Virus record (IMG/VR): IMGVR_UViG_2541047954_000008
From: a virus
Lineage: Duplodnaviria; Heunggongvirae; Uroviricota; Caudoviricetes
Length of the DNA: 34,146 bases
Reading direction: 5' to 3' (one strand)
Shown: positions 17,839 through 33,255 of the stretch, in pieces
Layout of the letters: each line of letters starts with the position of its first letter
How positions within the stretch are numbered: the stretch's first letter is position 1
Notes under the pieces: model-generated
The model's database searches: none
Told to the model about the DNA's origin: nothing
Seen by the model: the letters and a program-made list of their open reading frames with translations, nothing else
Position numbers and translations under genes: made by a program

Positions 17839-17841
17839 ATA

Positions 17842-17917
<76 letters not shown>

Positions 17918-17919
17918 AC

Positions 17920-17996
17920 TGGACCGCCACCGGGGACTCGAACCTCGCACACTCAACTTAAAGGGTTGACGCTCTTTCCTGATGAGCTAGTGGCGG
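17920..17996 (-). tRNA. tRNA-like gene, anticodon UUU (Lys) if canonical, with C at position 33
   Basis: Acceptor CCGCCAC/GTGGCGG, anticodon stem UCAAC/GUUGA, loop CCUUUAA, encoded CCA; noncanonical C33 and one T-stem mismatch. Confidence 0.5.
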
Positions 17997-17997
17997 T

Positions 17998-18073
17998 TGG
18001 TGGCCCTTGCTGGATTTGAACCAGCAACCTGGCGATTATGAGTCGCTCGCTCTCACCACTGAGCTAAAGGGCC
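17998..18073 (-). tRNA. tRNA with CAU anticodon (Ile2 lysidine-type or Met), ileX/ileZ-like
   Basis: Acceptor GGCCCUU, anticodon loop CUCAUAA, T-loop TTCAAAT, encoded CCA. Confidence 0.7.
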
Positions 18074-18198
18074 GGGCGCGAAATAATACATATGCCAGTT
18101 CAGCTCTGCAATACCCCACACACACCTGATTCAATCCTGTATCTGCTTCATACATGGTAAAAAGTATGAGCAGCCAACAAAAAGTTACTCAGGCAATA

Positions 18199-18972: not shown

Positions 18973-19058
18973 TTAGTCAAGAAGCTTCATAGCAGGAAAA
19001 ACTCATAGCACAATCGCCATCACATTTAATGTTCTGTGTCTTTTTCGGGTATAAAAAA

Positions 19059-19074
19059 CCCGCTCGGCGGCGGG
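19059..19074 (-). terminator. tR'-like intrinsic terminator downstream of the Q-like gene
   Basis: Forward aaaaaacccgctcggcggcgggtt; on the transcribed strand the hairpin is followed by TTTTTT; 68 bp past the Q stop. Confidence 0.5.
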
Positions 19075-19141
19075 TTGTGCTTGCTTTTGCCATCACGTAC
19101 AAAATCGGCAAAATATCAGATTTGCATGAAATATATGCCTT

Positions 19142-19831
19142 TCAATCTACTTTTGCAACACTTTGCTTTGAAAATGCCGCCTTTTGTATTGAACGTATTC
19201 TCATTACAAACAATAAAGCCTCACTATCCAGTCGGTGAAAAATGTGTTTCATTGCAACCCAGTGACGAGTAAATGTTTTGGACCAGTTTTTAGTTGTCAC
19301 TCCCGCCAGTAATGCCAGCTCCTGGTATTCATAACCTTCCCCACCAAAAAGTTCTGCTTTTACTGCCTGCGCCGCCAGCCAGATTAATTTTTTCAGGCGT
19401 TCCTGCGTTTTCCCTGCAATTTTTCTGGTACCGGATTGAGTATTAAATTCATTCCACGCCCACTGTGTTATCGCGATCTGATATTCCCAACAAATACTCC
19501 CGCTGTAACACCACAACAACCAGGCTTTATGATGTTCTTCAAGAGACAGAACAGCCCGCCGCCACGATGATGTCGAAAACTCAACCGGACTGACCAGAGG
19601 AATTGACGTCCCCTTCGCCAGCGATTGCTTTCCCGGGATTGGTGGATTATCCCGCGTTATCATTTTTCCAGTCACTTCATCGCGGTACCGGATTTTTTTT
19701 CGCCTGTAACGCCCTGTATCGAACATGGCATTCTCTTGCCAGGCTTCAAGCTGACCTTTTGTTGCCCCACTCAAATCAGCGGTGGCGATAATGAGCTGCT
19801 CACGCACAAACTGTAAATACTGGTTATTCAT
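19142..19831 (-). CDS. Putative late-gene antiterminator (Q-like)
   Basis: ATG 19831-19829 overlaps RusA stop (ATGA), GGAG upstream; position between RusA and a terminator preceding the lysis genes. Call by synteny. Confidence 0.55.
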   Translation of the reverse strand: MNNQYLQFVREQLIIATADLSGATKGQLEAWQENAMFDTGRYRRKKIRYRDEVTGKMITRDNPPIPGKQSLAKGTSIPLVSPVEFSTSSWRRAVLSLEEHHKAWLLWCYSGSICWEYQIAITQWAWNEFNTQSGTRKIAGKTQERLKKLIWLAAQAVKAELFGGEGYEYQELALLAGVTTKNWSKTFTRHWVAMKHIFHRLDSEALLFVMRIRSIQKAAFSKQSVAKVD

Positions 19832-20193
19832 GCGCACTCCAGTTCTGTGATTTTTATCCCCAGCCGCCCACCAGGAACGAGCTGACCGCGCACAATATTG
19901 ATTTCATCAAACTGCTCGTCGTCTATAAGTAGTCCGGCATGCGTCAGCGCATCCAGTGGTGCCTTCAGGATATTGTCCAGGTCGCGGCGGCGCTTATCCG
20001 GTGGCTCTGCAATAATCTTTATCGCCAGCCTTCCGGACAGGCTTAATTTCAGCCGCTGCTGGCGAACAATTAGCGCCACATCACGGCGATAACGCTTTCC
20101 AGCTTCCGAGATGAAATACGTATTGCCATGACGTCGCCAGTAGGTATTCACCGTCGGCGGGTAAGGCAAAACAAATTCTATGCGTTCAGTCAT
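19828..20193 (-). CDS. rusA: RusA-family Holliday junction resolvase
   Basis: 121 aa; motifs YPPTVNTYWR and DKRRRDLDNILKAPLDAL recalled as RusA-like. Confidence 0.8.
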   Translation of the reverse strand: MTERIEFVLPYPPTVNTYWRRHGNTYFISEAGKRYRRDVALIVRQQRLKLSLSGRLAIKIIAEPPDKRRRDLDNILKAPLDALTHAGLLIDDEQFDEINIVRGQLVPGGRLGIKITELECA

Positions 20194-21249
20194 TCATGCT
20201 TTCCACTTCAGGACACCCGAATTTCTCGCGTGCATTAAAAAACGAATCAGCAACAACAGCTGGCTGCCGTGTTTTTCTTCAAAATCTTTTACCCCGGCGT
20301 GCAGTTCGTTATGACATTTACGGCACAGCGGAATAACAAACAAATCATCAGCCTTTGTTCCCATCCCTCCCAGTCCATGACCAATGATGTGATGCGGATC
20401 ATCTGCCTGATTACCGCACGTCATGCATTTCTGCGTTTTTACCCAACGCGTGTATACAGGCATCTCTTCCCGTTGTGGTTTCTGGCGCTGGAGATACTGA
20501 GCCGGTGACTCCGGATCAACGGCAATGCTGACCACCGTCTTTTCCTGTGGCGGGTTTTGCTGGTGGGCGTGAGGCAGCGGCGCAAGATTTTTTGTGCGCT
20601 GCTTCAGTATGCTGGTGGCGGTCTGCTCTCCCGGTACGATGTCGCTTTCACGGTACATTGAGCGGATTTTTTCCGCACGCAACCCCAGCGAACGACGTAA
20701 TACCGCTTCCGGTAGCGCGTCCGCCACCTGATTGCGGACCGCCCACCAGGATAATTCAGCCAAAGATAATTCACGCTCCTGCGTACCGCTTATTGCGTGA
20801 CCGATGACGTCAATCATCCATGCTGACAGGTTTTGATGAGCAAGTTGCTCGAGTGATTCGGATGTCTGGTCACGCAGCTGGTTGTCGCAGTGCCAGCACA
20901 ACACCATTGCGCCGGTACCATAACGGTGAATGACGGTTTCGCTGTGATGATAATCGCCGTGTGGCCACTGGCAGGATTTAATATGGCGCAACAGCCAGTC
21001 AGACAATGCACCAGCACCACCAGCAGCACGAATCACCCGTGCGTTACTGAAAAACGGCAGCAATGTTTTGTCTTCCACCAGCGGCTGGCGAACGGCAGGA
21101 ACGACCCCGGACGGCAGATTACGCATGCTTTTCGGTTCCGGCTCCACCAATACCCGGGTATTGTGGAATACCGGCATGGATTCACGGCCCGGCTTAACGA
21201 TCACCAGCCCGAGTTCCGGTACCAGAACAGGTCGAAGTAATACCCGCAC
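20194..21249 (-). CDS. DUF968-type protein with C-terminal HNH-like motif (YdfU-like)
   Basis: 351 aa, GTG start with GGAGG upstream; C-terminal CMTCGN...HHIIGHG...CRKCHNELH. Confidence 0.65.
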   Translation of the reverse strand: MRVLLRPVLVPELGLVIVKPGRESMPVFHNTRVLVEPEPKSMRNLPSGVVPAVRQPLVEDKTLLPFFSNARVIRAAGGAGALSDWLLRHIKSCQWPHGDYHHSETVIHRYGTGAMVLCWHCDNQLRDQTSESLEQLAHQNLSAWMIDVIGHAISGTQERELSLAELSWWAVRNQVADALPEAVLRRSLGLRAEKIRSMYRESDIVPGEQTATSILKQRTKNLAPLPHAHQQNPPQEKTVVSIAVDPESPAQYLQRQKPQREEMPVYTRWVKTQKCMTCGNQADDPHHIIGHGLGGMGTKADDLFVIPLCRKCHNELHAGVKDFEEKHGSQLLLLIRFLMHARNSGVLKWKA

Positions 21250-21250
21250 G

Positions 21251-21529
21251 TTACCTCCAGATGCGTTGCTGGAATGTGCGAGACGGACGCGGTGGGCGTT
21301 CAGAGTAAGGAAGCCTGACGGAGATTATCCAGTGACGATAATCGAGGCTGAGGGCTTTCTTAATCTCGTATCCGTGTCTGCGGTAGCACTGAATTAGCCA
21401 CTCGGCCTGTTCTTCAGTGCATGGGTCATGCTGGAACCAGTCAGATTTGAAAGTGCGGGAACGCCGCCCGTGCCTGCTGGCAAAGACGGCAGAATCATCA
21501 GAATTGTGTAATTTGGTATCGTGCGCCAT
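21251..21529 (-). CDS. Hypothetical protein
   Basis: Track ORF 21251..21610 begins on TTG; first ATG at 21529 (MAHDTKLH) taken as start; weak SD. Confidence 0.4.
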   Translation of the reverse strand: MAHDTKLHNSDDSAVFASRHGRRSRTFKSDWFQHDPCTEEQAEWLIQCYRRHGYEIKKALSLDYRHWIISVRLPYSERPPRPSRTFQQRIWR

Positions 21530-21612
21530 CGGTTGTCTCTGCTGGCGCAGCAGGTGCCAGTTGTTCAGGCTGGCGTGCGAATTGTAAACCAGAATGCCAG
21601 GAAAAAACAAAA

Positions 21613-21626
21613 CCCGCCGAAGCGGG
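21613..21626 (-). terminator. Intrinsic terminator downstream of lipoprotein gene
   Basis: cccgc-cgaa-gcggg stem-loop followed on the coding strand by TTTTGTTTTTT. Confidence 0.45.
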
Positions 21627-21825
21627 TATGCTAAAACGAACTGAAAGTAATATACCGGACTTGTAAAGGAACGATAGAATAATTATTGGATTAAACCCTG
21701 ACTCAATCCAGATTTCATAGGCAACAACTACGGACTAATCATCACAGTCATGTTTGATAGGCTTAGTCCACATTGGGTGAGGGTTTACGGCGTTTTCACT
21801 AATAATTTATCGTCCAAGCTATACA

Positions 21826-22218
21826 CTACTGCCCTGTTTTAACGAAGTTTTTAAAGGAAACAACTGCCTGATAGGGGTTTGGTTGACAGCCAAACATATT
21901 ATCGCAAAAAGGCTTGATGAAAATTCTTGAGGATCCATCTTCATTTGGCATTTTACTCACTTGATAAGCGAGGAATGGACTATTTGGAGAGGGATTATAA
22001 GTGGAAATTAGCGTGTCTGTCGCCGTTTGAATTTTCCATGAGGAATTATTAGCCAACCAGAATTGCGCTCGTTTCCAATAAAAGTCACATTGCTTTTCAT
22101 CATTACATGTTAGTGGCTTCATTGCTTCTGCTTTCAACGCTGGATCGACCTTTGCTGCACACCCTCCCAACATTACTGTTGCAATCATTACACCTGCGAC
22201 TAAAACAAGTTTCTTCAT
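21826..22218 (-). CDS. AT-rich cargo gene: secreted lipoprotein, function unknown
   Basis: 130 aa; signal peptide MKKLVLVAGVMIATVMLGGC with lipobox Cys; AT-rich; terminator-like hairpins on both sides. Confidence 0.65.
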   Translation of the reverse strand: MKKLVLVAGVMIATVMLGGCAAKVDPALKAEAMKPLTCNDEKQCDFYWKRAQFWLANNSSWKIQTATDTLISTYNPSPNSPFLAYQVSKMPNEDGSSRIFIKPFCDNMFGCQPNPYQAVVSFKNFVKTGQ

Positions 22219-22361
22219 CTCCCTGCCCCATCAATAAAAGTTCGGTTCTCTAATAACTAGAGTTAATCAACGGAAAAAACGCCGAAGCGGGTTAAGTGTG
22301 GGTGCATTGAGGATGCCTGACTCATCAGAGGTGGCGAGGGATTTCTCCCCCGCCAGGTCTC

Positions 22362-22517
22362 TTACTCCTCAGGTTCGTAAGCTGTGAAGACAGCGACCTC
22401 CGTCTGGCCGGTTCGGATTCGTACCTCGCAGAGGTCTTTCCTCGTTACCAGTGCCGTCACTATGACGGTTAAACAGATGACGATCAGGGCGATTAGCATC
22501 GCCTTTTGCTGCTTCAT
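22362..22517 (-). CDS. hok: Hok/Gef-family type I toxin (51 aa)
   Basis: MKQQKAMLIALIVICLTVIVTALVTRKDLCEVRIRTGQTEVAVFTAYEPEE, recalled as HokD/RelF-like; AGGAGAAG 8 nt upstream; in-frame upstream ATG at 22574 gives a 70-codon ORF. Confidence 0.85.
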   Translation of the reverse strand: MKQQKAMLIALIVICLTVIVTALVTRKDLCEVRIRTGQTEVAVFTAYEPEE

Positions 22518-22728
22518 AGCCTGCTTCTCCTTGCCTTTCGGCACGTAAGAGGCTAACCTACATGTGTTCAGCATGGATTGAGCCTCAGATTAATGTTAAG
22601 CGTCTTGCGGGACGCGTAATGTTAACTGGGGCTTTTCTCTATCTGCCGTTGGTGTTCATGCCCGAGGCAGATAGCCTCAAGCACCCGCAGCAATTCTACT
22701 TAACTCACGTCACCTCGCCAATATAAAA

Positions 22729-22818
22729 TCAATCAGAGAGGTGATTCATAAGAACGATAACAAGACAATAAATTGCCATTACTGCCGCAATAGCCAGCGC
22801 ACATTTCAGAACCAGCAC
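22729..22818 (-). CDS. Candidate 29-aa hydrophobic peptide upstream of hok
   Basis: GTG 22818-22816 with GGGAGG 5 nt upstream; translation (M)LVLKCALAIAAVMAIYCLVIVLMNHLSD; flanked by a 13-bp direct repeat. Below the track size cut-off. Confidence 0.25.
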   Translation of the reverse strand: MLVLKCALAIAAVMAIYCLVIVLMNHLSD

Positions 22819-22946
22819 GATGACCTCCCATATTTGACGTACACACGCATGATTCAATATGTAGCAACCTATTTCTTGCTTCAATATAAAATCAGGTATT
22901 GTTGTACAACTATTTAACTAACTCCCTATCCCCACATCTCAGGCGC

Positions 22947-23063
22947 TCAACGTCTGTGTGCGGGGCGTTTTTTAATACCTTCCCCCCAGCGGCAAATCGA
23001 ATACACCACCAGCGCCACCGCCATTGCAATTCCTACCGTTGTGAATGCTTCAGGCCAGGTCAT
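22947..23063 (-). CDS. Candidate 38-aa single-TM peptide coupled to the 171-aa gene
   Basis: ATG 23063-23061 overlaps upstream stop (ATGA); MTWPEAFTTVGIAMAVALVVYSICRWGEGIKKRPAHRR. Confidence 0.3.
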   Translation of the reverse strand: MTWPEAFTTVGIAMAVALVVYSICRWGEGIKKRPAHRR

Positions 23064-23575
23064 CGCAAAACATCCTCCGCGCTTATCAGTTCGTTCCGCT
23101 TCAGGTAGTCCATCGCCTTCTCCGGTAATTTGCAGTCTGGATTAGCTTTTTTCAGTTGACTGACCAGTCGTTTAACCCACATTGTTAATTCGCCAACTTG
23201 GTTACTGGATGCTAATGGATTGTCGGCTTTACCCAGAATGACAGCACAGCAGGCCTCTTTGAGAACCCAATCAACAGCATCTTTCCATACTCCTGTTTCG
23301 ACTGGTGGATTCTCACGCTTTACCTGTTCATAAAAGCGCACGGCTTTAACCAGTCCTTCTGATATCACCGGGGCTGGCGGGGTAGTGAATAAGGCCTGAA
23401 TCTCATAGCTCGGCCTGTCGTTGCAATCCTCTTTTGTCGGTACATATTTCCAGTCACCAACCCACATCTTCTCCTGAAAGTCCGTAACGCCCTTTTTCAC
23501 ATAGCGATATCGCCATGCAACTGGTTTTTCCTGCCCTACCGTTTCATGCCCTTCCTGATAATTAATCTCGCTCAT
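23060..23575 (-). CDS. Hypothetical protein (171 aa)
   Basis: Clean ORF, start overlaps upstream stop (ATGA); no recognisable motif. Confidence 0.6.
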   Translation of the reverse strand: MSEINYQEGHETVGQEKPVAWRYRYVKKGVTDFQEKMWVGDWKYVPTKEDCNDRPSYEIQALFTTPPAPVISEGLVKAVRFYEQVKRENPPVETGVWKDAVDWVLKEACCAVILGKADNPLASSNQVGELTMWVKRLVSQLKKANPDCKLPEKAMDYLKRNELISAEDVLR

Positions 23576-23748
23576 TCATCGCCCCACTCATCACAATATG
23601 CTTCGACAGGTGTTTTTCCTGCTTCGTAGTCATCACGCCAGGCTTCAGCATCAGCAGCACTTCCACCACGTAACTCTGCATAATCCATTAACAGTTCATG
23701 CCATTCTTCAAAACTGACATTGTATTTAGTTGAACCAAAATCAGCCAT
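23572..23748 (-). CDS. Small acidic protein (58 aa)
   Basis: ATG 23748-23746 with GGAGGA 8 nt upstream; MADFGSTKYNVSFEEWHELLMDYAELRGG...DEWGDE; below track cut-off. Confidence 0.5.
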   Translation of the reverse strand: MADFGSTKYNVSFEEWHELLMDYAELRGGSAADAEAWRDDYEAGKTPVEAYCDEWGDE

Positions 23749-23923
23749 TTTGTTCTTCCTCCTCGTCTTTTATTTCGTGATATGAGTAATTGCAGTAGTT
23801 AAAGAAAATTTCTTTTGCTTCGTCATGAATTTCATCTGGTGTTGCGTCATCGTCCACTTCGAATACATCCTCAAAATCTCCACCAGCTATTCCTGTTTCA
23901 ATAATTATTTTGAACTTTCGCAT
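23741..23923 (-). CDS. Small acidic protein (60 aa)
   Basis: Track ORF; Asp/Glu-rich (FEDVFEVDDDATPDEIHDEAKE...KDEEEEQNG); hairpin and palindromes upstream. Confidence 0.5.
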   Translation of the reverse strand: MRKFKIIIETGIAGGDFEDVFEVDDDATPDEIHDEAKEIFFNYCNYSYHEIKDEEEEQNG

Positions 23924-24067
23924 TTCACTACCGCCCTTTCGGGCGGCCTCCTGATGATTTGAGGGTACAGAAATCCCTCCGGTTAAGGATTAAATTTTAT
24001 TTACAGAACTGAATTTAATTATTCAGATATACGTATCTGTAACCTTACGAACCTACTCACTGGATGC

Positions 24068-24541
24068 CTATTTCATAAAAATAATCCAGTGGGTTTTATC
24101 GTTTTTTCCTGTTCGTTGACCGATAACAGGTTTTCTGTCGGTCAGTATCAATATCTGGCGAACAGGTATTTGCGTTTCATTCCATTTAAAAATCAGAACG
24201 CCGGATGGACGCAACACACGAAAGGCTTCTTTAAATCCCTGCCGCAAATCATCACGCCAGGTATCTTTATTCAGCCGTCCATATTTCTTTCCCATCCAGG
24301 CGTTATCACCAACACGCTCAAGATGCGGAGGGTCGAATATAACCATCGAAAAAGATGCGTCTGCAAATGGTAGTGCACGAAAATCAGCTATCAGATCAGG
24401 ACTGATAATCAGGCGTCGTCCATCACACAATGTGTGCTCTTCCTTTCTGATATCGCTAAATATCGCCCGGTCGTCATTCTTATCGAACCAGAACATGCGA
24501 CTGCCACAGCACATATCAAGAATGGTTGCCGGTGCACTCAC
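24068..24541 (-). CDS. Orphan DNA methyltransferase (DPPH motif)
   Basis: 157 aa; LDMCCGSRMF (motif I-like) then IFDPPH (motif IV-like); GTG start with GGAGG upstream overlapping upstream stop; no restriction partner seen. Confidence 0.65.
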   Translation of the reverse strand: MSAPATILDMCCGSRMFWFDKNDDRAIFSDIRKEEHTLCDGRRLIISPDLIADFRALPFADASFSMVIFDPPHLERVGDNAWMGKKYGRLNKDTWRDDLRQGFKEAFRVLRPSGVLIFKWNETQIPVRQILILTDRKPVIGQRTGKNDKTHWIIFMK

Positions 24542-24960
24542 TGCGCTACCTCCGGAAAATTACCCTGATAGAAAGCCAGTACACGCTGCATAGCTTCGCT
24601 CTTCCGGCACTCGCGACAGATTATATTCAGACGCCCGTCATATCGGCGTATTTCTCCGTCTGGTAATGACCAGATAAGGTCAGGATCAACCACAACCGTT
24701 TTTTTCACCTTTGCCCTGGATAGTTTTTTGCGGGCGTTTTGCCAGTCCTTACGGGCCTGTTCAGACGGAAATAACCCGTAACCAGAGTTGTATACATCGC
24801 CACTGGCAACCAGCTCTCTGGCCAGAACGCTCATCAGATATCTTGTTGCCCCAGTTTTAGCTTCCAGTTGTCGTAACGTCTCGCGCCCACTCTGGCGTAC
24901 GAGTTCAAGAACCTGCCCTTTAATTTTTTCCCGCTCTTCTTGTGTAAAAACTTTTGCCAC
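24538..24960 (-). CDS. Hypothetical protein (140 aa), possible DNA-binding
   Basis: GTG start with AGGAGGG upstream; HTH-like TLRQLEAKTGATRYLMSVLAREL; follows replication gene. Confidence 0.55.
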   Translation of the reverse strand: MAKVFTQEEREKIKGQVLELVRQSGRETLRQLEAKTGATRYLMSVLARELVASGDVYNSGYGLFPSEQARKDWQNARKKLSRAKVKKTVVVDPDLIWSLPDGEIRRYDGRLNIICRECRKSEAMQRVLAFYQGNFPEVAQ

Positions 24961-25000
24961 AAGCCCTCCTGAAAATTACCTCATGACCAGAAATTAACAC

Positions 25001-26071
25001 TTACCCCCTGAAGCCCGGCGGAATTTCGTTATCCGGTTCAGAAATATGATTCACACAACGCTGGTTGTTCGTGCCGCTTACCGGGAGCAACCAGGGGTTC
25101 TCAAAATTCCGGTCCGGTCCAAAAAACGTCGTCGCTCGCTGAACAAATTCCGTTCCCGTTTTCCCGGTAGCCGCCAAGTATCTTGCGTAACGCCTCACGC
25201 CATCCAGCATGGCCTCTGGTGGCACCCCCTCGCGTAATCTGGCCTTCCAGGCACTGAAAGCGGATTTCTTCGGGTTTGCTCCGGCACGCAACGGGTACTC
25301 CCGCCAGACCTGTTCGAACACATCCGGATAATCCACTCGTCCCACAGACTGCCCGGTGTTTTCCGGGACTACCCGATCGGCTTCCCGCTGAATGGCGGAA
25401 TCGGCTTCAGGCTGCTGCAGTTGGTGTGATTGCTCCGGCCTTGCGGTCATCACCTGCTGCACAGCGCCCGAATCGGCTTTCAGCGCATACGCTGAATCGG
25501 CTTCCGGTGTCGTGCCTGCTGGCTGACCAAGATTGACGGTCTGAACATCCCCTGCCTGGTTCGTGGCGTTTTTTACGCCATGGACCATAGTGTTTTGATC
25601 TTCTTGATCTGTATCTTTATCTGTATCTTTATCTGTCGTGACTCGTCGTGACATGTGCGTGACATTTCGTGACGCGCCGTGACAATCGCCATTTTGTTCC
25701 CGCTTTCTTTCCCTCTCTCGCTGCGCCCTCTTGCGCTCTGCAGGAGATTTTGCGGTTTGCGAAATATTGCCGTTGTCCTCTTTAAGCACCTGGCGTTTTT
25801 CCCATCCAGTGATTAAATCACCATCAAGTACCCGCCCCTGCATCGTCTGCAAAATTGAATCAATTACCTCTTCTGTCACGTCGAGCGCACTTGCCAAATC
25901 TTCTGTCGTGACATCAATGTGACCTCGCGTGACATTTCGTGACGCGCTCACCAGGAGGTGGATATACACTGCCATCACTGTTGCAATTGGCTGCCCTGAC
26001 ACCCTGGCAATTGTTCGCCACTTAGGGTCATTTGGCATGTCATGCCATAATCTGAGCCAAGCGTTAGCCAT
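25001..26071 (-). CDS. Replication initiator (O-like) containing the origin iterons
   Basis: ATG 26071-26069 with GAGGTGAG upstream; two CGTGAC iteron clusters plus an AT-rich tandem repeat inside the gene, as in lambda O/ori. Confidence 0.6.
   Translation of the reverse strand: MANAWLRLWHDMPNDPKWRTIARVSGQPIATVMAVYIHLLVSASRNVTRGHIDVTTEDLASALDVTEEVIDSILQTMQGRVLDGDLITGWEKRQVLKEDNGNISQTAKSPAERKRAQRERERKREQNGDCHGASRNVTHMSRRVTTDKDTDKDTDQEDQNTMVHGVKNATNQAGDVQTVNLGQPAGTTPEADSAYALKADSGAVQQVMTARPEQSHQLQQPEADSAIQREADRVVPENTGQSVGRVDYPDVFEQVWREYPLRAGANPKKSAFSAWKARLREGVPPEAMLDGVRRYARYLAATGKTGTEFVQRATTFFGPDRNFENPWLLPVSGTNNQRCVNHISEPDNEIPPGFRG
25637..25683. repeat. Iteron cluster A: five CGTGAC cores at 10-11 bp spacing, next to tandem atctgtatcttt repeats (25608-25634)
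   Basis: Read directly: gtcgtgac tcgtcgtgac atgtgcgtgac atttcgtgac gcgccgtgac. Confidence 0.6.
25905..25943. repeat. Iteron cluster B: four (C)GTGAC cores at about 10 bp spacing
   Basis: Read directly; cgtgacatttcgtgacgcgc is shared exactly with cluster A. Confidence 0.55.
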
Positions 26072-26142
26072 ACTCACCTCTTCTGATACCGAATCTTTTT
26101 ACTCACGAGTTGCCGGAAGCGATTCGATATGGCTATTGTCAG

Positions 26143-26568
26143 TCAATGTACTGCCACAGCATTTCCTGCCGGGCCACCACGGTTCATCTGATTGAAACCG
26201 GCGATTGCCACTGCGACAAAATCATCAGCGTCTCTCACCAATCGCTCCCGCGTCTCCACCAGCTCCCGAAAATAAGCTGAACTGTGGCTGCGCATTCTGG
26301 CCACCAGCAAAGGTGGCATTGCCTTTTCGATCGCTGGTAACAACGCCTGAATTTTTTCAACTGCATCAGGGGTGTCTTTCTCTACCCAGCGGAAAATTTT
26401 CTGGGTATTGCGAGCCAGGGCTTCCGGATGGCTGTCGTCATACAGTTCAGGAAACGTCATACCCAACTCAAAATAAGCCTGGGTTATTCCAGCTGCTGGA
26501 ACTTTTTCGCCATCAGGACGCGCCCAGGCATTCATCGCCATGCGGATGTGTTCATGCTTGATTTTCAT
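26143..26568 (-). CDS. YdaT-like early protein
   Basis: ATG 26568-26566 (MKIKHEHI) with AAGGGGGGA upstream; position between cro-like and O-like as in Rac ydaS-ydaT-ydaU (recalled). Confidence 0.5.
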   Translation of the reverse strand: MKIKHEHIRMAMNAWARPDGEKVPAAGITQAYFELGMTFPELYDDSHPEALARNTQKIFRWVEKDTPDAVEKIQALLPAIEKAMPPLLVARMRSHSSAYFRELVETRERLVRDADDFVAVAIAGFNQMNRGGPAGNAVAVH

Positions 26569-26794
26569 GAATCCCCCCTTGGTTAGAAGGCGGATTATGA
26601 TCAGAACCGGGAATGACAACCGTCGGTATGTGTAACTCATATTTGAGCGCCCCGGCAGTGACTGCCTGAATTAGCAACGCCCATTTCCACGGAACCTCTT
26701 CCCCCCACATGCTGACTGTGGTTTTTGACGTTCCTAGAGCTGCGGCTGTTTTAACAACTCCGCCAAAATAGCCTAATACTTCTGATTTTTTCAT
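26552..26794 (-). CDS. Cro-like HTH regulator
   Basis: 80 aa from ATG 26794-26792 (GGAG upstream); HTH-like VVKTAAALGTSKTTVSMW; divergent from cI-like gene. Confidence 0.7.
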   Translation of the reverse strand: MKKSEVLGYFGGVVKTAAALGTSKTTVSMWGEEVPWKWALLIQAVTAGALKYELHIPTVVIPGSDHNPPSNQGGIHENQA

Positions 26795-26885
26795 GAGTCG
26801 CTCCATAAAACTGAACGCCAAAAGTTTAATAATCAAAACCAAAGAAAGTCAAGAAACAAAACCATCTGTGTTTTAAAATCAAAAC
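26795..26885. promoter_or_regulatory. Divergent immunity control region with two operator-like inverted repeats
   Basis: O1 agtttaataatcaaaacc 26823-26840; O2 tgttttaaaatcaaaaca 26869-26886 abutting the cI ATG; TTGACT -35 on the cro strand. Confidence 0.5.
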
Positions 26886-27524
26886 ATGAGCAAGCAAACA
26901 ATATCTGAACGCATAACCCAACGTATGCATGCGCTAAACCTGAAAGGCAAAGACCTTGTCAATGCCACTGGCGCATCAAAAGGCTCCGTAAGTCAATGGA
27001 TGAACGGTGGAGGAGCGCCGTCCTCGCGTTACATAAGTTCACTGGCAAAGGTATTGAAAGTAAACGAAAATTGGCTTCTTAATGGAGGAGAGTTAAATAC
27101 AGGTGATTCGCTTGATCTATCTTTACCGCCGATAAAAACGGTTCCGCTACTATCACTTCAGCAGGCAGCAAGCTGGAGTGATTATATGAAAAATTCCTCA
27201 ATAACCTCTTGTGTGCAGCTTGTCGGAGAAATCCCGGCCAATACCTTTGCAGTTGTTCTAGAGAGTGACAGTATGTCAACATCTGGTGGGGGAGTTTCCA
27301 TCCCAAATGGTTCAACAGTTTTTGTTGATCCCGATCGAACCGTACAACCAGGAAATATTGTCCTTGCCTTACCCAAAGGGACCACAACACCTGTCATTCG
27401 TAAACTGGAGATAGAAGGGCCGGATATTCTTTTAGTCCCCACGAATCCTCGCTACCCTTCAATTATGCTGGATGATCTATCTTGCATATTGGGCGTATGC
27501 TTTAAAATTCAACAAGATATTTAA
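26886..27524 (+). CDS. cI-like repressor (N-terminal HTH, C-terminal S24 LexA-like peptidase)
   Basis: 212 aa; HTH GKDLVNATGASKGSVSQWMNG; C-terminal ESDSMS (Ser) and downstream Lys consistent with Ser-Lys dyad. Confidence 0.85.
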   Translation: MSKQTISERITQRMHALNLKGKDLVNATGASKGSVSQWMNGGGAPSSRYISSLAKVLKVNENWLLNGGELNTGDSLDLSLPPIKTVPLLSLQQAASWSDYMKNSSITSCVQLVGEIPANTFAVVLESDSMSTSGGGVSIPNGSTVFVDPDRTVQPGNIVLALPKGTTTPVIRKLEIEGPDILLVPTNPRYPSIMLDDLSCILGVCFKIQQDI

Positions 27525-27588
27525 CCAACCTCATCTATTTGATTAACTGTATGCCATCGTGGCGATGGCTTAACAGCTGCCTGCTTAA

Positions 27589-27637
27589 AATGTTTTGATA
27601 AAAAAACATTGACCTGAAAAGTTCATTTTTCTAAACT
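27589..27637 (+). promoter_or_regulatory. PL-like promoter with overlapping operator O3
   Basis: Perfect inverted repeat aatgtttt-gataaa-aaaacatt (27589-27610) overlapping -35 TTGACC (27609-27614), 17-bp spacer, -10 TAAACT (27632-27637). Confidence 0.45.
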
Positions 27638-27816
27638 TCATTCATTCCCTCACCCCACCCCACAGAATGCAGGGCAATACTTCGAGTTACCAGGCAGTGG
27701 TCAGGGGTTAAGTAGCCAGCCCGAGGCGTAAGAACATGACGGCAGGGTTCAACTTTAATAACTATGCAGCAGGTTTTTGTTCCGCTACCCCGGCGTTAAG
27801 GGGAAATGAGGTCAAC

Positions 27817-27972
27817 ATGGATACTATCGATCTTGGCAACAACGAATCTCTGGTGTACGGCGTGTTTCCCAACCAGGACGGCACATTCACCGCGATGACG
27901 TATACCAAAAGCAAAACGTTTAAAACCGAAAATGGTGCCCGTCGCTGGCTGGAAAGAAACTCAGGTGAGTGA
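27817..27972 (+). CDS. ydfA: YdfA-like small protein (51 aa)
   Basis: ATG 27817 with GAGG upstream; first gene of the dicB-type operon; recalled as Qin ydfA-like. Confidence 0.65.
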   Translation: MDTIDLGNNESLVYGVFPNQDGTFTAMTYTKSKTFKTENGARRWLERNSGE

Positions 27973-27973
27973 T

Positions 27974-28102
27974 ATGGATTTCGACACAATCATGGAAAAG
28001 GCTTACGAAGAATACTTCGAAGGCCTTGCCGAAGGCGAAGAAGCTCTCAGCTTCAGTGAGTTTAAACAGGCGCTTTCCAGCTCGGCAAAATCTAACGGCT
28101 GA
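27974..28102 (+). CDS. ydfB: YdfB-like small protein (42 aa)
   Basis: ATG 2 nt after ydfA stop; MDFDTIMEKAYEEYFEGLAEGEEALSFSEFKQALSSSAKSNG; below track cut-off. Confidence 0.6.
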   Translation: MDFDTIMEKAYEEYFEGLAEGEEALSFSEFKQALSSSAKSNG

Positions 28103-28131
28103 TAAGCGAAGCAGCACCGCGAGGAATCAGT

Positions 28132-28350
28132 ATGCAGAAACGAGAACCCGTCATCATCGCGCCAGACTATACCGATGATGAACTTTATGAGTGGATGCGC
28201 CAGAAAATTAATGCAGCGCAGGATCTGAAATGGGCCAATGAAGCCAGGGCTAAGCAGGCTGAAAATCTGTCCGCTCTGGAGCAGGATATCACCAATCTGG
28301 AAAAAGCAGCGGCATTAAGCATTGCCAGAATGATTACATACCCGCGTTAA
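28132..28350 (+). CDS. ydfC: YdfC-like protein (72 aa)
   Basis: Track ORF; operon position before DicF. Confidence 0.65.
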   Translation: MQKREPVIIAPDYTDDELYEWMRQKINAAQDLKWANEARAKQAENLSALEQDITNLEKAAALSIARMITYPR

Positions 28351-28467
28351 TAGCTAACCAACGAAGCTAAGGTTGGTAATTAAGGAGTTCTCCACGGGTG
28401 AGGTGGAGTGCGTGCGCCGGACACGGGTGAGCATCCGGCACTGACAGTTTACTGAAAGGATATTTCC

Positions 28468-28656
28468 ATGAAAAGTCAGACCATAACGCGAAAGCGCACG
28501 GCGAAGTTCGTCTCACTGTACGGTGTCGTTAAATTTAATTCGACCGTGCGCTTCCGGTTGTGGCAACCCGCGAAATGGCGCGGCGGTAAGTATGGCGGGG
28601 TTATTCCTTCCCCGTTGAGGACACCGGGTTGTCAGGTTGACCATACGCTTAAGTGA
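28468..28656 (+). CDS. Possible small basic protein inside the DicF precursor region
   Basis: 62-aa ORF with AAGGA 8 nt upstream; may equally be non-coding. Confidence 0.25.
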   Translation: MKSQTITRKRTAKFVSLYGVVKFNSTVRFRLWQPAKWRGGKYGGVIPSPLRTPGCQVDHTLK

Positions 28657-28687
28657 CAACCCCGCTGCAACGCCCTCTGTTATCAAT

Positions 28688-28745
28688 TTTCTGGTGACGT
28701 TTGGCGGTATCAGTTTTACTCCGTGACTGCTCTGCCGCCCTTTTT
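28688..28745 (+). ncRNA. dicF: DicF small RNA (antisense regulator of ftsZ) with hairpin and T-run terminator
   Basis: tttctggtgacgtttggcggtatcagttttactccgtgactgctctgccgcccttttt recalled as DicF; ends hand-estimated. Confidence 0.7.
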
Positions 28746-28914
28746 AAAGTGAATTTTGTGATGCGGTGAATGCGGCTAAGCGCACGCGGAACAGTTAAAA
28801 CCAAAAACAGTGTTATGGGTGGATTCTCTGTATCCGGCGTTAATTGTTAACTGGTTAACGTCACCTGGAGGCACCAGGCACCGCATCACAAAACTCATTG
28901 TTGAGGGCGCGATA

Positions 28915-29103
28915 ATGAAAACGTTATTACCAAACGTTAATACGTCTGAAGGTTGTTTTGAAATTGGTGTCACTATCAGTAATCCTGTATTTACTGAAGA
29001 TGCCATTAACAAAAGAAAACACGAACGGGAGTTATTAAATAAAGTATGCATTGTTTCAATGCTGGCCCGTTTACGTCTGATGCCAAAAGGATGTGCACAA
29101 TGA
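28915..29103 (+). CDS. dicB: Cell division inhibitor DicB (62 aa)
   Basis: MKTLLPNVNTSEGCFEIGVTISNPVFTEDAINKRK..., recalled as near-identical to K-12 DicB; GAGGG upstream. Confidence 0.8.
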   Translation: MKTLLPNVNTSEGCFEIGVTISNPVFTEDAINKRKHERELLNKVCIVSMLARLRLMPKGCAQ

Positions 29104-29291
29104 ATCCAGTATTTGCACTTATTCTGACGGTTTTTCTTGTTTCCGGAGAGCCAGTTGATATTGCAGTCAGTGTTCACAGAACAATGCAGGAATGTATGGC
29201 AGCAGCAACCGAACAGAAAATTCCAGGCAACTGTTATCCGGTCGATAAAGTTATTCACCAGGATAATAACGAAATCCCGGCAGGATTTTAA
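29100..29291 (+). CDS. ydfD: YdfD-like lysis-associated small membrane protein (63 aa)
   Basis: ATG overlaps dicB stop (ATGA); hydrophobic N-terminus MNPVFALILTVFLVSG. Confidence 0.7.
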   Translation: MNPVFALILTVFLVSGEPVDIAVSVHRTMQECMAAATEQKIPGNCYPVDKVIHQDNNEIPAGF

Positions 29292-29384
29292 AACAGCACC
29301 GTAATAAATATCCAGTTTCATTCTTATATGTCAGCAATGGCAGAGATTTGTTCACACTTAAATCTGTGATGAGGTTTACCAATA

Positions 29385-31826
29385 ATGAGCACTGATAAAG
29401 AAGAATTTGCACTATATTGCGAAGCAAAAAATGACAAAGTAAGAAAACGCCTAGGAATTAAAGGTGGTTTTTACTGGACTACAGCAAAAAAATTATCTGT
29501 TGCAATCTCCCGCTGCATTACCGCAATGGATGACAACGATTATGATGAAGACGACTTTAAAAAACCCGTCCGCGTCAATTTGCCCGTTGTTGACGACCTT
29601 CCGCCAGAAGGCGTGTTTGATACTGAATTCTGCAACCGCTATGAAAAAGGCGGGAAAGATGGCATCACAATGACATTTATCGGCCCTTCCCCCTCTGTTC
29701 AGGACAAACCAGCCAGCACTGACAATACCAACATCAACGGCGAAGACATGACTGAGATTGAGGAGAGCATGCTTCTGCCTGTCTCCGGTCAGGAACTGCC
29801 CATTCGTTGGCTTGCTCAACACGGCAGCGAAAAACCAGTAACGCACGTTTCACGCGACGAACTCCAGGCATTACACATTGCACGGGCTGAAGAACTACCG
29901 GCTGTTACTGCCCTGGCTATTTCGCATAAAACCAGTCTGCTCGACTCGCTGGAGATTCGCGACCTCCACAAACTGGTTCGTGACACTGACAAAGTTTTCC
30001 CTAATCCTGGTAATTCAGACCTGGGACTAATAACTGCTTTTTTCGAAGCATACCTGGACGCTGACTACACTGATCGGGGTCTGCTGACAAAAGAGTGGAT
30101 GAAAGGAAATCGTGTTTCACGCATCACCCGCACGGCTTCCGGTGCTAATGCTGGCGGTGGGAACAAAACCGATCGCAATCCGAATTTAGTACACACCCTC
30201 GACACACTGGATGTGGAGATTGCAGCAGCCACACTTCCGATGGATTTTAATATTTATGAAATTCCGGGCAGCGTTTATCGTCGCGCAAAAGAAGTAGTCC
30301 TGAACAAAGAAAGTCCGTTCAAAGAATGGTCCGCAGCACTTCGTGCAACCCCGGGTATTCTGGACTATTCCCGCGCCGCTATTTTTGCACTTATCCGAAG
30401 CGCACACCCTGAATTTTATCACTACCCGGGACGCCTTCAGGGGTATATCAACGCCTATTTGACGGAAACTGATCACGAGAACCCCAGCAAGGAAACTCTC
30501 ACAGCTGCCCGGCATACGCCGGAAAAAGATATCCTGGAAAAAATTAACCGCGAGGTGGTTACTGAGCGTGAAACAGAAGAAGAAAAACCACAACCATCTG
30601 ACGCAATGGCAGGTGAACAGGCAACAACTGAAACAATGGAACCGGATACAACTGAACATGGCCAGAACGCGCAGTCGCTGGATGCTCAGTCGCAGGTGAG
30701 TTCCGCTAACCAAGTAAAAGTCACCGCTGACGAAGTAAACAAAATTATGCAGGCAGCCAATATCAGCCAGCCTGACGCCGATAAGTTACTTGCTGTATCG
30801 CGTGGTGAATTTGTTGAGGGGATTAGCGACCCTAATGATCCGAAATGGGTCAAGGGGATCCAGACTCGCGATTCTGTGAACCAGAACCAGCATGAATCGG
30901 AACGGAACGACCAAAAAGCGGAACAAAACAGCCTAAATGCGTTACAAAACGAGCCAGAAACGAAACAATCCGAACCAGTAGCGCAACAGGAACCGGAAAA
31001 AGTCTGCACCGCCTGCGGTCAGAGCGGTGGCGGCAACTGCCCTGATTGTGGCGCGGTGATGGGCGACGCAACATACCAGGAAACATTCGATGAAGAGAAT
31101 CAGGTTGAAGTTCAGGAAAATGATCTGGAGGAAATGGAAGGCGCTGAACATCCACACAAGGAGAACCCTGGCGGCAATCAGCATCACGCCAGCGATAATA
31201 AAACTGGCGAGGCGACAGATCCCTTAATTAAGGTGAATGGTCATCATAAGCTCACATCCACCAGCAGAGCGGGGATTCATCTGATGATCGACCTTGAAAC
31301 CATGGGAAAAAATCCCGATGCCCCGATTATCTCAATAGGCGCAATATTTTTCGATCCACAAACCGGAGATATGGGACCGGAATTTAGCAAGACCATCGAT
31401 CTGGATACTGCTGGCGGAGTCATTGATCGTGACGTCATTAAATGGTGGCTGAAGCAATCACGTGAAGCGCAGTCTGCCATTATGACCGATGAAATCCCGT
31501 TAGATGATGCACTACTGCAATTGCGGGAATTTATCGACGAAAACTCCGGTGAATTTTTTGTTCAGGTCTGGGGTAATGGGGCCAACTTCGACAACGTGAT
31601 TTTACGCCGTTCATACGAACGACAGGGTATCCCCTGCCCATGGCGCTACTGCAACGATCGCGATGTACGCACAATCGTTGAGCTGGGGAAAGCCATAGAC
31701 TTCGATGCCAGAACTGCTATCCCATTCGAAGGTGAGCGCCATAATGCACTTGATGACGCTCGTTACCAGGCAAAATACGTTTCAGCTATCTGGCAAAAAC
31801 TGATCCCGAGTCAGGCTGATTTTTAA
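29385..31826 (+). CDS. 813-aa exonuclease: C-terminal DnaQ-like DEDDh 3'-5' exonuclease domain, central zinc ribbon, acidic linker
   Basis: Exo motifs MIDLETMG, GNGANFDNVIL, HNALDDARY in last ~190 aa; CTACG-x7-CPDCG at about 31006-31050; full-length relative of the truncated K-12 ydfE as recalled. Confidence 0.7.
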   Translation: MSTDKEEFALYCEAKNDKVRKRLGIKGGFYWTTAKKLSVAISRCITAMDDNDYDEDDFKKPVRVNLPVVDDLPPEGVFDTEFCNRYEKGGKDGITMTFIGPSPSVQDKPASTDNTNINGEDMTEIEESMLLPVSGQELPIRWLAQHGSEKPVTHVSRDELQALHIARAEELPAVTALAISHKTSLLDSLEIRDLHKLVRDTDKVFPNPGNSDLGLITAFFEAYLDADYTDRGLLTKEWMKGNRVSRITRTASGANAGGGNKTDRNPNLVHTLDTLDVEIAAATLPMDFNIYEIPGSVYRRAKEVVLNKESPFKEWSAALRATPGILDYSRAAIFALIRSAHPEFYHYPGRLQGYINAYLTETDHENPSKETLTAARHTPEKDILEKINREVVTERETEEEKPQPSDAMAGEQATTETMEPDTTEHGQNAQSLDAQSQVSSANQVKVTADEVNKIMQAANISQPDADKLLAVSRGEFVEGISDPNDPKWVKGIQTRDSVNQNQHESERNDQKAEQNSLNALQNEPETKQSEPVAQQEPEKVCTACGQSGGGNCPDCGAVMGDATYQETFDEENQVEVQENDLEEMEGAEHPHKENPGGNQHHASDNKTGEATDPLIKVNGHHKLTSTSRAGIHLMIDLETMGKNPDAPIISIGAIFFDPQTGDMGPEFSKTIDLDTAGGVIDRDVIKWWLKQSREAQSAIMTDEIPLDDALLQLREFIDENSGEFFVQVWGNGANFDNVILRRSYERQGIPCPWRYCNDRDVRTIVELGKAIDFDARTAIPFEGERHNALDDARYQAKYVSAIWQKLIPSQADF

Positions 31827-31841
31827 TGTTCAACCCTAATT

Positions 31842-31867
31842 GCCGCTAACCGTATATAGTTAGCGGC
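31842..31867 (+). other. 9-bp perfect-stem hairpin between exonuclease stop and excisionase start
   Basis: gccgctaac-cgtatata-gttagcggc read directly; no U tract. Confidence 0.3.
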
Positions 31868-31884
31868 GGTTATGAGATATAGCT

Positions 31885-32088
31885 ATGAGCAGCTTATTTT
31901 TAACCGAAGATGAATTGCTAATATTAACGGGCTGCAAATATGCAAGCCACCAGCGAAAATGGTTAATGGAAAACGGGCTTCCGTTCTATACCAATCGTAG
32001 TGGCAAACCGATTGTCAGCCGGGATCTATTTACCTGCAATAAAACTTTACCACCACGCGAGGTAGAGCCGAATTTTGGTGCGATCTGA
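31885..32088 (+). CDS. xis: Excisionase-like DNA-binding protein
   Basis: 67 aa immediately upstream of integrase; stop overlaps integrase ATG. Confidence 0.6.
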   Translation: MSSLFLTEDELLILTGCKYASHQRKWLMENGLPFYTNRSGKPIVSRDLFTCNKTLPPREVEPNFGAI

Positions 32089-33165: not shown

Positions 33166-33255
33166 TGGCGGAGAGAGGGGGATTTGAACCCCCGGTGGAG
33201 TTGCCCCCACTCCGGTTTTCGAGACCGGTCCGTTCAGCCGCTCCGGCATCTCTCC
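33166..33255 (-). tRNA. serU: tRNA-Ser (anticodon CGA), host gene serving as att site
   Basis: 90-nt cloverleaf with long variable arm: GGAGAGATGCCGGAGCGGCTGAACGGACCGGTCTCGAAAACCGG...CTCTCCGCCA. Confidence 0.8.

Follow-up and report, generated by a model that had tools for sequence, protein, structure and literature searches.

The window, a stretch of 34,146 nucleotides of viral DNA (IMG/VR record IMGVR_UViG_2541047954_000008), contains a complete gene for an exonuclease. The gene is intact and conserved and belongs to the early-left (PL-type) operon of a lambdoid Escherichia coli prophage of the Qin/dicBF type. The prophage is integrated at tRNA-Ser (serU), beside mtfA, and its genes follow the order cI, ydfABC, DicF, dicB, ydfD, exonuclease, xis, int and tRNA-Ser (Table 1). 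RefSeq genomes carry a single CDS with the same coordinates, and the gene there is 100% or 99.8% identical. A scan of the gap upstream of the exonuclease gene found no plus-strand promoter-like or terminator-like site, and the counts of such sites in the scanned region around the gene were at chance level. The phage also encodes a RusA resolvase, and the neighbouring integrase is flagged as frameshifted by PGAP in near-identical prophages.

Table 1. Coordinates of the exonuclease gene, its modules and the surrounding prophage features in the window
Feature	Position	Strand	Basis or remark
cI-type (LexA/S24) repressor	26886..27524	+	Head of the same-strand early-left region
dicBF-type early-left genes	27736..29291	+	ydfA-like (DUF1391), ydfB, ydfC, DicF, dicB, ydfD; upstream of exonuclease
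ydfC	28132-28350	+	
DicF sRNA	28689-28740	+	
dicB	28915-29103	+	
ydfD/DUF1482	29100-29291	+	
RecE-N / DEDDh chimeric exonuclease, complete ORF	29385..31826	+	ATG start, 813 aa plus stop codon
RecE-type N-terminal region, aa 1-375, folded	29385..30509	+	PF06630 = aa 57-189
Linker aa 376-632, acidic, Glu/Gln-rich, largely disordered, common to RecE	30510..31280	+	Composition, pLDDT, alignments to RecE and Tritos protein
Zinc ribbon C541-x2-C544-x7-C552-x2-C555	31005..31049	+	Sequence motif; kept in Rac RecE
Homology breakpoint versus K-12 recE (DNA and protein), codons 615/616	31228..31232	+	~18 codons before the DEDDh domain
DEDDh 3'-5' exonuclease domain aa 633-813 (PF16473, DexA/Rv2179c-like)	31281..31823	+	Catalytic D636, E638, D736, H786, D791
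Excisionase-like DUF4224 gene	31885-32088	+	Immediately downstream of exonuclease
Tyrosine integrase	32088-33113	+	After the excisionase-like gene
tRNA-Ser(CGA) attachment site	33166..33255	-	Host mtfA next; prophage end
17 Chi octamers (GCTGGTGG)	3298..31954	14 on -, 3 on +	Across the prophage

The protein is modular and consists of a RecE-type N-terminal region, a disordered linker with a zinc ribbon, and a DEDDh domain of the DexA/Rv2179c type. The presence of a DEDDh nuclease at the C-terminus of this 813-residue frame, which was the core of the original prediction, was borne out by several lines of evidence. The Pfam family PF16473 (Rv2179c-like 3'-5' exonuclease) matched residues 632-803 at E=3e-66 and 222.9 bits, against a cut-off of 27 bits, and was covered over profile positions 2-177 of 177. 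The five catalytic residues aligned to D7, E9, D119, H186 and D191 of T4 DexA, and each is kept in 56-58 of 58 homologues (the 813-residue protein and 57 genome loci) with identities of 45-94%. An AlphaFold2 model of the domain (pLDDT ~90) has the RNase H-like DnaQ fold, and Foldseek placed DexA first among its PDB matches (8KEL, E=4e-10), with RNase T and Orn next; DexA was also the top entry in a PDB sequence search with the protein (E=3e-5). The nuclease had further been described as not belonging to the PD-(D/E)xK class, and indeed Pfam found no such domain in the protein and the RecE C-terminal domain, used as a tblastn query against the window, returned only noise. From its family membership the domain is predicted to be an Mg2+-dependent 3'-5' exonuclease, for which the most likely substrate would be DNA 3' ends or single-stranded DNA, as for T4 DexA. 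The host exonucleases ExoI (SbcB), ExoX and RNase T share the DEDDh fold and the predicted polarity, and RNase T follows DexA as the second-closest structural neighbour; these housekeeping enzymes, however, lack a RecE-type module and have no significant sequence similarity to the domain outside the motifs.

The N-terminal ~400 residues, in which no nameable motif had initially been seen, turned out to have a clear relative. PF06630 (RecE N-terminus / Exonuc_VIII region) matched residues 57-189 at E=3.5e-36, and residues 58-615 aligned to residues 50-591 of Rac RecE (exonuclease VIII) with 58% identity, the zinc ribbon included. Similarity to RecE is non-significant past residue 615, with the breakpoint in the DNA at ~31230, and the C-terminus of RecE itself carries PF12684 (PD-(D/E)xK, RecB-like). 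The NCBIfam equivalog NF007259 scored 948.3 bits, below the full-length cut-off of 1269 bits, and was matched only over profile positions 1-603 of 877. Since residues 58-615 are RecE-like at this level of identity and the homology ends ~18 residues ahead of the nuclease domain, the protein is a RecE derivative rather than an unrelated nuclease, one in which the PD-(D/E)xK 5'-3' nuclease has been exchanged for a T4 DexA-like 3'-5' nuclease. What the two proteins share is PF06630, the acidic linker and a zinc ribbon of the form CxxC-x7-CxxC, and each gene is found towards the end of its early-left operon, ahead of xis and int. They differ in that the fusion has a DEDDh 3'-5' domain in place of the PF12684 5'-3' nuclease, and in that no recT follows the fusion gene, xis and int being directly downstream.

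The N-terminal region combines strands and helices over approximately residues 1-100 and is helical over residues 120-375, with a disordered loop at residues 103-112. Its fold is predicted with confidence but has no structural neighbour in the PDB or BFVD, and structure comparison found its fold to be unlike that of any Rad52, RecT or Rad51 protein. The linker that follows is rich in Glu and Gln, has a net charge of -29 and is predicted to be disordered over most of its length, with pLDDT values below 50 at residues 495-535 and 568-626 of the AlphaFold2 model and a conserved helical island at approximately residues 448-490. The zinc ribbon noted at the outset in this acidic linker is an exact C-x2-C-x7-C-x2-C motif (C541-TA-C544-GQSGGGN-C552-PD-C555). 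It is present in just 5 of 21 long fusion proteins (the 813-residue protein and 20 from other species), all of the Escherichia clade, and was ruled out as a family-defining feature; it is specific to that clade.

Natural proteins combine the RecE-type N-terminal module with one or the other nuclease, or carry it without any. A homologue search with the N-terminal 632 residues returned only proteins at least 99% identical, and diversity was assessed from representatives of 50% identity clusters. Among 79 such representatives of at least 450 residues that share the N-terminal region, 15 have a DEDDh domain, 21 a PD-(D/E)xK domain and 43 no detected nuclease domain. To our knowledge, the N-terminal three quarters of RecE have long been without a known function, and their behaviour here as a portable module provides a handle on that question. 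In E. coli the DEDDh segment is found in 4065 of 5426 complete genomes and a full-length copy in 1242 complete genomes, and the long fusion gene of 20 other species adjoins an integrase (19 neighbouring ORFs match Phage_integrase).

The suggestion that this is a nuclease of an undescribed type does not stand, as the gene is a common and already catalogued E. coli prophage gene. Identical proteins are present in RefSeq and UniRef under the names 'exonuclease' or '3'-5' exoribonuclease domain-containing protein', and PHROGs 607, 2082 and 20376 cover the protein. Zheng et al. 2025 (PMC12315714) described the nuclease-only 'Tritos' module type as well as nucleases of the DnaQ-like kind in the early-left operons of lambdoid phages. 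T4 DexA, for which a structure has been solved, belongs to the same catalytic family, as does EcD, a defence exonuclease of E. coli (Kang et al. 2025, PMC12153337). Literature queries with the Pfam names, with ydfE and dicB, and with RecE and DEDDh found no experimental work on this fusion. As a sequence feature the gene is ordinary, being among the most frequent prophage genes of E. coli, but it is often mislabelled 'exodeoxyribonuclease VIII' despite lacking the RecE nuclease and having the opposite expected polarity. This annotation needs correction, as the protein is neither RecE nor a recombineering exonuclease.

The absence of an annealing-protein gene, which had been asserted for the neighbourhood, was confirmed for the window and for the prophage as a whole within the sequence-recognisable families of annealing proteins, SSBs and anti-RecBCD proteins that such searches detect. 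Pfam and PHROG scans found no annealing-protein family in the early-region ORFs (those of at least 90 residues from the tRNA cluster to cI, with Q and cro left out, and three ORFs of the early-left operon), and six-frame tblastn of the window with RecT, Bet, Erf, lambda Exo, Gam and Abc2 gave a best E-value of 0.049. A partner might have been encoded just outside the window; in the complete ~40-kb prophage of strain G749, as annotated by PGAP, there is no annealing protein, and the part to the left of the window contains tail genes only. The module thus holds no SSAP gene (RecT/Red-beta, Erf, Rad52-like or Sak4) that would make it a two-component recombinase. The same is seen at the 20 long fusion loci of other species, where no RecT, Bet or Erf match was found nearby and the 25 most frequent Pfam families of the neighbours include no annealing-protein family. 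The prophage is highly enriched in Chi, with 17 octamers observed against 1.22 expected and none of 100 shuffles reaching 17, and the strand with 14 of them is also the strand that carries the structural genes. Following the interpretation of Chi enrichment in PMC12315714, this pattern marks a phage that makes use of the RecBCD of its host.

These properties match the Tritos-type Rec module, which consists of a nuclease only, is rich in Chi and contains no SAP, SSB or anti-RecBCD gene (Zheng, Casjens, Davidson, Amundsen and Smith 2025, PMC12315714). Tritos is the prototype of this nuclease-only, Chi-rich class, in which the numbers of Chi on the two strands range from 21/6 to 7/2 (PMC12315714). 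The prophage described here likewise has an early-left nuclease gene, no recognised SAP, SSB or anti-RecBCD gene, and 14 and 3 Chi per strand, which lies within the class range and exceeds the four required on the active ('top') strand. Its nuclease is orthologous to that of the prototype: TRITO_27 is >90% identical over residues 455-812 (the last ~360 residues), and the flanks are the same, with DicF, dicB and ydfD upstream and xis and int downstream. The difference lies in the first ~270 residues, which in Tritos, as in K-12 ydfE, form a different N-terminal module from the RecE PF06630 type seen here. K-12 ydfE was also considered as a cut-down copy of the N-terminus described here, and this was rejected as ydfE matches the Tritos-type module.

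Comparison with DexA (PDB 8KEL/8KEN) and EcD places the fusion within the same catalytic family. The DEDDh catalytic core is shared, whereas overall identity to DexA is only ~26% and several DexA loops are missing. The 5hmC-recognition residues W152 and D169 of DexA align with C756 and A770, a difference that is suggestive but not final as the alignment is moderately reliable at 26% identity; tryptophan is kept at the W152 position in 44 of 58 relatives. DexA and EcD are stand-alone proteins of ~190-230 residues, while the domain described here is fused to a 630-residue RecE-type module and is encoded in the early operon of a temperate phage. EcD was also examined as a candidate for the C-terminal domain of the fusion itself and rejected, as the EcD cloning primers encode MIDTET... 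and ...TIPETY and the domain starts with MIDLETMG... and ends with ...PSQADF. The primer-encoded ends of EcD differ from the retrieved stand-alone E. coli homologues as well.

Taken together, the evidence favours a reading in which the gene encodes an early-left-operon enzyme that trims DNA ends in the 3'-5' direction in a phage relying on host RecBCD and RecA, and we consider this explanation to be probable. From its context, the protein would appear alongside DicB and DicF once the prophage is induced, and would not constitute half of an exonuclease-plus-annealase recombinase. Recombination-dependent replication would most likely be left to host RecBCD and RecA, because the phage has no annealing protein, no RecBCD inhibitor and many co-oriented Chi sites. 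In that case the exonuclease would play an accessory part, trimming or degrading 3' ends. T4 DexA clears single-stranded and oligonucleotide DNA, and comparable clearing, or the removal of non-homologous 3' tails, may be the job of the fusion. The RecE-type N-terminal module may contribute targeting or partner binding, which is a guess given that the module is without a structural or functional analogue. Two points raised by Zheng et al. argue against this reading (PMC12315714): homologous recombination is usually inhibited, not promoted, by 3'-5' exonucleases of the superfamily, so that a beneficial effect on replication or recombination is not self-evident, and Rec modules of one gene are 'somewhat suspect'. 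Also counting against it are the name of the Pfam family, which comes from an exoribonuclease, and the presence of RNase T and oligoribonuclease among the close structural neighbours.

The alternation of the N-terminal region among two unrelated nucleases and none could also mean that this region is an autonomous functional module, armed interchangeably with PD-(D/E)xK, DEDDh or nothing, although we regard this as doubtful. Were it true, the conserved function would be the N-terminal activity, for example the binding of a host DNA-repair or replication factor or of particular DNA ends, and the DEDDh-armed version would perform a job not yet described, such as that of an exclusion or anti-defence nuclease or the channelling of phage DNA ends into Chi/RecBCD-dependent recombination.

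A role in defence is unlikely, although a link between DexA-like exonucleases and defence against phages with modified DNA has recently been made. The protein would in this case be made in the lysogen and would selectively degrade the 5hmC-type DNA of superinfecting T-even phages, in the manner of HREX/EcD. Genes adjacent to int/att are often lysogenic-conversion or defence cargo, and the fusion belongs to the catalytic family of T4 DexA. There is a precedent in EcD, an E. coli DexA homologue that cuts only 5hmC-DNA and protects against T4, and 38% of the DexA homologues in bacteria come from Escherichia (Kang et al. 2025, PMC12153337). Most of these Escherichia homologues are probably members of the prophage family described here, because its DEDDh segment is so frequent in complete genomes. 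However, EcD is a different, stand-alone protein, the residues for 5hmC recognition appear to be replaced, and the fusion to a RecE N-terminus would be left unexplained. Expression in the lysogen is also not expected, since the gene lies at the far end of a repressor-controlled operon and has no plus-strand promoter-like site just upstream. Distinguishing a defence role of this very widespread prophage version from support of Chi/RecBCD-dependent phage growth would be cheap and informative.

An enzyme acting on RNA or small nucleotides, that is, an exoribonuclease or nanoRNase used in host take-over or anti-defence during lytic growth, is improbable. PF16473 takes its name from the M. tuberculosis exoribonuclease Rv2179c, '3'-5' exoribonuclease' is a frequent RefSeq name, and the Foldseek matches after DexA are RNase T, oligoribonuclease, REXO2 and the CBASS-associated exonuclease Cap18. 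Targets under this reading would be RNAs, linear oligonucleotide signals or primers. The closest characterised relative in both sequence and structure is nevertheless a DNA exonuclease, DexA, the carrier module derives from the DNA enzyme RecE, and stand-alone relatives in other prophages are found amid genes of DNA metabolism (SSB, Erf, Rad52-like, RdgC, Dam).

We give equally little credence to a true recombination exonuclease whose annealing partner has gone unrecognised, be it its own N-terminal region, a small neighbour or a host protein. The gene does sit at the operon position of recE and retains ~600 RecE residues, its phage encodes RusA, and stand-alone relatives in other genera adjoin Erf, Rad52-type or Sak4-type genes in ~6 of 37 loci. 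Against this, Pfam, PHROG, tblastn and annotation revealed no annealing-protein family in the window or the whole prophage, none adjoins the 20 long fusion genes of other species, and the N-terminal fold does not resemble Rad52, RecT or Rad51. Known annealases and RecA make no productive use of the 5' tails that 3'-5' resection produces, and the abundance of Chi suggests that the phage relies on RecBCD.

That the gene is a recET module in decay, with no function at present, is highly improbable. Truncation is frequent among related copies, partial entries are numerous in the databases, K-12 ydfE at the same position is an IS2-disrupted pseudogene and the adjacent integrase carries the PGAP frameshift flag in near-identical prophages, but the frame is intact across 813 residues and full-length in the 1242 complete genomes, the catalytic residues are kept across genera at 45-94% identity, and the same architecture is maintained in ~20 species.

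The 813-codon open reading frame is genuine, with ATG as its start codon, and its product consists of the non-catalytic three quarters of RecE joined to a differently folded nuclease. The C-terminal DEDDh domain of the original prediction is recovered as Pfam PF16473 (Rv2179c-like 3'-5' exonuclease) at residues 632-803 (E=3e-66), and the protein, as anticipated, contains no PD-(D/E)xK domain. The N-terminus had been described as lacking any nameable motif, but it matches PF06630 ("Enterobacterial exodeoxyribonuclease VIII") at residues 57-189 (E=3.5e-36). By BLASTP, residues 58-615 align with residues 50-591 of Rac RecE of E. coli K-12 at 58% identity, with stretches more than 90% identical and with the acidic linker and zinc ribbon inside the aligned part. 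This similarity stops at codon 615/616, approximately 18 residues ahead of the DEDDh domain; RecE has the PD-(D/E)xK domain PF12684 where this protein has DEDDh, and the NCBIfam RecE equivalog model is matched over only the first 603 of its 877 positions, with a score under the cut-off. A RecE part has therefore been joined to another nuclease, whose polarity, judged by family, would be opposite to that of RecE.

Alignment with T4 DexA equates the DEDDh residues D636, E638, D736, H786 and D791 with D7, E9, D119, H186 and D191. A decaying remnant was among the explanations considered; each catalytic residue is kept in 56-58 of 58 homologues (this protein and 57 genome loci, 45-94% identical). 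The only PDB structures matched by sequence search were 8KEL and 8KEN, both T4 DexA (Kang et al., NAR 2025; PMC12153337). The exonuclease domain is confident in an AlphaFold2 model of residues 440-813, for which DexA was the best PDB match (E=4e-10), followed by RNase T, oligoribonucleases and Cap18, and the exonuclease family is very common among phages, tblastn having matched 1362 phage records that range from lambdoid phages to T4-like dexA genes. Family membership thus predicts a Mg2+-dependent 3'-5' exonuclease; an RNA- or nucleotide-directed enzyme was considered, and the substrate is most probably DNA. We also considered a defence nuclease resembling HREX (EcD), the stand-alone E. coli DexA homologue that confers protection from T4 and attacks 5hmC-DNA alone (PMC12153337). 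In the alignment, W152 and D169, the DexA residues implicated in 5hmC recognition, fall opposite C756 and A770. The position of W152, which stacks on 5hmC, is Trp in 44 of the 58 homologues and Tyr in the nearest Escherichia relatives; Cys is unique to this protein. EcD itself is a different protein, as its primer-encoded termini differ. An in-frame ATG at codon M634, preceded 9-13 nt upstream by GGGGA, coincides exactly with the start of stand-alone homologues of 180-185 aa (MIDLETMG...), and production of a free DEDDh domain from this internal start is conceivable.

The linker was also as described, with the zinc ribbon (C541-x2-C544-x7-C552-x2-C555) lying inside a Glu/Gln-rich segment at residues 376-632 of net charge -29. 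AlphaFold2 models this segment as mostly disordered, except for a short helical island at residues ~448-490 and the ribbon, which occurs in 5 of 21 long fusion proteins, all of the Escherichia clade. Residues 1-400 are modeled with a mean pLDDT of 92 from a 77-sequence alignment of diverse relatives, and structure searches with this model returned no informative neighbor (best Foldseek match against BFVD, E = 0.17). A search of 1.84 billion cluster representatives with residues 1-632 gave 268 families at E ≤ 1e-3. Among the 79 representatives of at least 450 aa, 15 carry a C-terminal DEDDh domain, 21 a C-terminal RecE-type PD-(D/E)xK domain and 43 no detectable nuclease domain; the RecE-type N-terminal module is therefore portable. 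The nuclease-less group is the counterpart of the "RecE-2" proteins noted by Zheng et al. (PMC12315714). The extreme N-terminus is itself swappable: in phage Tritos and in the ydfE pseudogene of K-12, a different sequence makes up the first ~250 residues, with the middle and C-terminal parts being the same.

The table collects the principal features of the window, an E. coli prophage of the lambdoid Qin/dicBF type.

Positions of features in the window
Feature	Position	Strand	Remarks
Four phage tRNA genes	17764-18073	-	Gly-TCC, Thr-TGT, Lys-TTT and a CAT-anticodon tRNA (tRNA-Ile by RefSeq in relatives); between Q region and lysis genes
RusA Holliday-junction resolvase and DUF968 protein with HNH-like domain	19828-21249	-
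sok antitoxin RNA	22512-22686	-	Rfam, 113.5 bits; hok/sok-type toxin-antitoxin locus, early-right region
DicF sRNA	28689-28740	+	Rfam, 76.7 bits
dicB and ydfD	28915-29291	+	directly upstream of exonuclease
Exonuclease gene	29385-31826	+	813 aa
RecE homology breakpoint	~31230		DNA alignment
Chi site in exonuclease gene	31258-31265	-
In-frame ATG	31284		codon M634
Codon C756	31650-31652		aligns with DexA W152
Integrase	32088-33113	+	341 aa; "frameshifted" by PGAP in near-identical prophages of MIN10 and G749
Chi octamers (17)	3298-31954

On the + strand, a cI-type repressor gene is followed by ydfA-like, ydfB, ydfC, DicF, dicB, ydfD, the exonuclease, a DUF4224 excisionase-like gene and the integrase, then by tRNA-Ser(CGA) and host mtfA. 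DicF, dicB and ydfD immediately precede the exonuclease, making it the distal member of a dicBF-type operon; in K-12 Qin its position is held by the IS2-disrupted pseudogene ydfE. The gap upstream of the gene has no + strand promoter-like or terminator-like site, counts in the scanned region being those of chance, so the gene is most simply the distal part of a repressor-controlled early-left operon. Excision may be impossible for this prophage.

The absence of an annealing partner also held. Pfam and PHROG scans of early-region ORFs returned RusA, DUF968/HNH, DUF977, YdaT, a replication initiator and a methyltransferase fragment, but no member of the RecT/Red-beta, Erf, Rad52-like or Sak4 families. 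When RecT, Bet, Erf, lambda Exo, Gam and Abc2 served as six-frame tblastn queries, the best E was 0.049. The complete ~40-kb prophage of a close relative, strain G749, lacks single-strand annealing proteins (SSAPs) and Gam throughout, with only tail genes left of the window; the flanking annealing gene that would have contradicted the original prediction was thus not found. Late recombination functions are thus kept, through RusA and DUF968/HNH, despite the missing annealase. In other species, all 20 long-fusion loci adjoin HTH repressor genes and integrases; none showed a RecT/Bet/Erf match, nor was an SSAP among their 25 commonest neighbor Pfam families. A recombinase with a hidden partner was considered; the context suggests instead that the enzyme is not one half of an exonuclease-annealase pair. 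Neighbors of stand-alone exonucleases (37 loci, 180-260 aa) include Erf/Rad52-type/AAA_24 in ~6 and SSB in 4. DUF2303 (PF10065) flanks 17 of the 37, in other Enterobacterales (among loci L014-L067), more than any recognized annealing protein, and is a recurrent partner of the stand-alone enzyme.

The prophage contains 17 Chi octamers (GCTGGTGG) against 1.22 expected from shuffles, 14 of them on the - strand, that of the structural genes, and none in the host flank. An analysis of lambdoid Rec modules (Zheng, Casjens, Davidson, Amundsen and Smith, Genome Res 2025; PMC12315714) describes 3'-5' nucleases of the DnaQ-like kind in these modules and DnaQ-type genes sporadically near int; its authors' view is that a phage lacking a recombination system of its own is Chi-enriched and uses host RecBCD. 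Phage Tritos has an orthologous gene with the same neighbors, and the two products share more than 90% identity across the final ~360 residues. This orthologue and the Chi enrichment place the prophage in the Tritos-type class of nuclease-only, Chi-rich modules described in that analysis. One Chi site falls between the recE breakpoint (28 nt before it) and the start of the DEDDh domain (19 nt after it); this may be coincidence (a chance of a few per cent with 17 sites in 34 kb) or could have been left by the event that joined the modules.

We propose that the enzyme, made after prophage induction, would act as an accessory processor of 3' ends, that the phage would leave strand exchange to host RecBCD and RecA, and that the RecE-type module would supply targeting of some kind. 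The original prediction was accurate in its sequence observations and partly right in its interpretation, but the type it suggested might be undescribed is already catalogued; the gene is already known and very common in prophages, and so does not represent a new kind of system. The exact 813-aa protein occurs on hundreds of contigs, labeled "exonuclease" or "3'-5' exoribonuclease", and "exodeoxyribonuclease VIII" is a frequent mislabel in phage records. At megablast level, a copy spanning 80% or more of the gene is present in 1242 of the 5426 complete E. coli genomes, and the DEDDh segment in 4065, where a single genome can have as many as 7 copies of the segment. Enterobacterial-type prophage sequence also appears on contigs labeled as a Veillonella parvula MAG, a Geobacteraceae MAG and Chryseobacterium sp. 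(loci L008, L024, L052 and L066, L008 being 95-100% identical to the exonuclease gene), which are probably binning or contamination errors in public assemblies.
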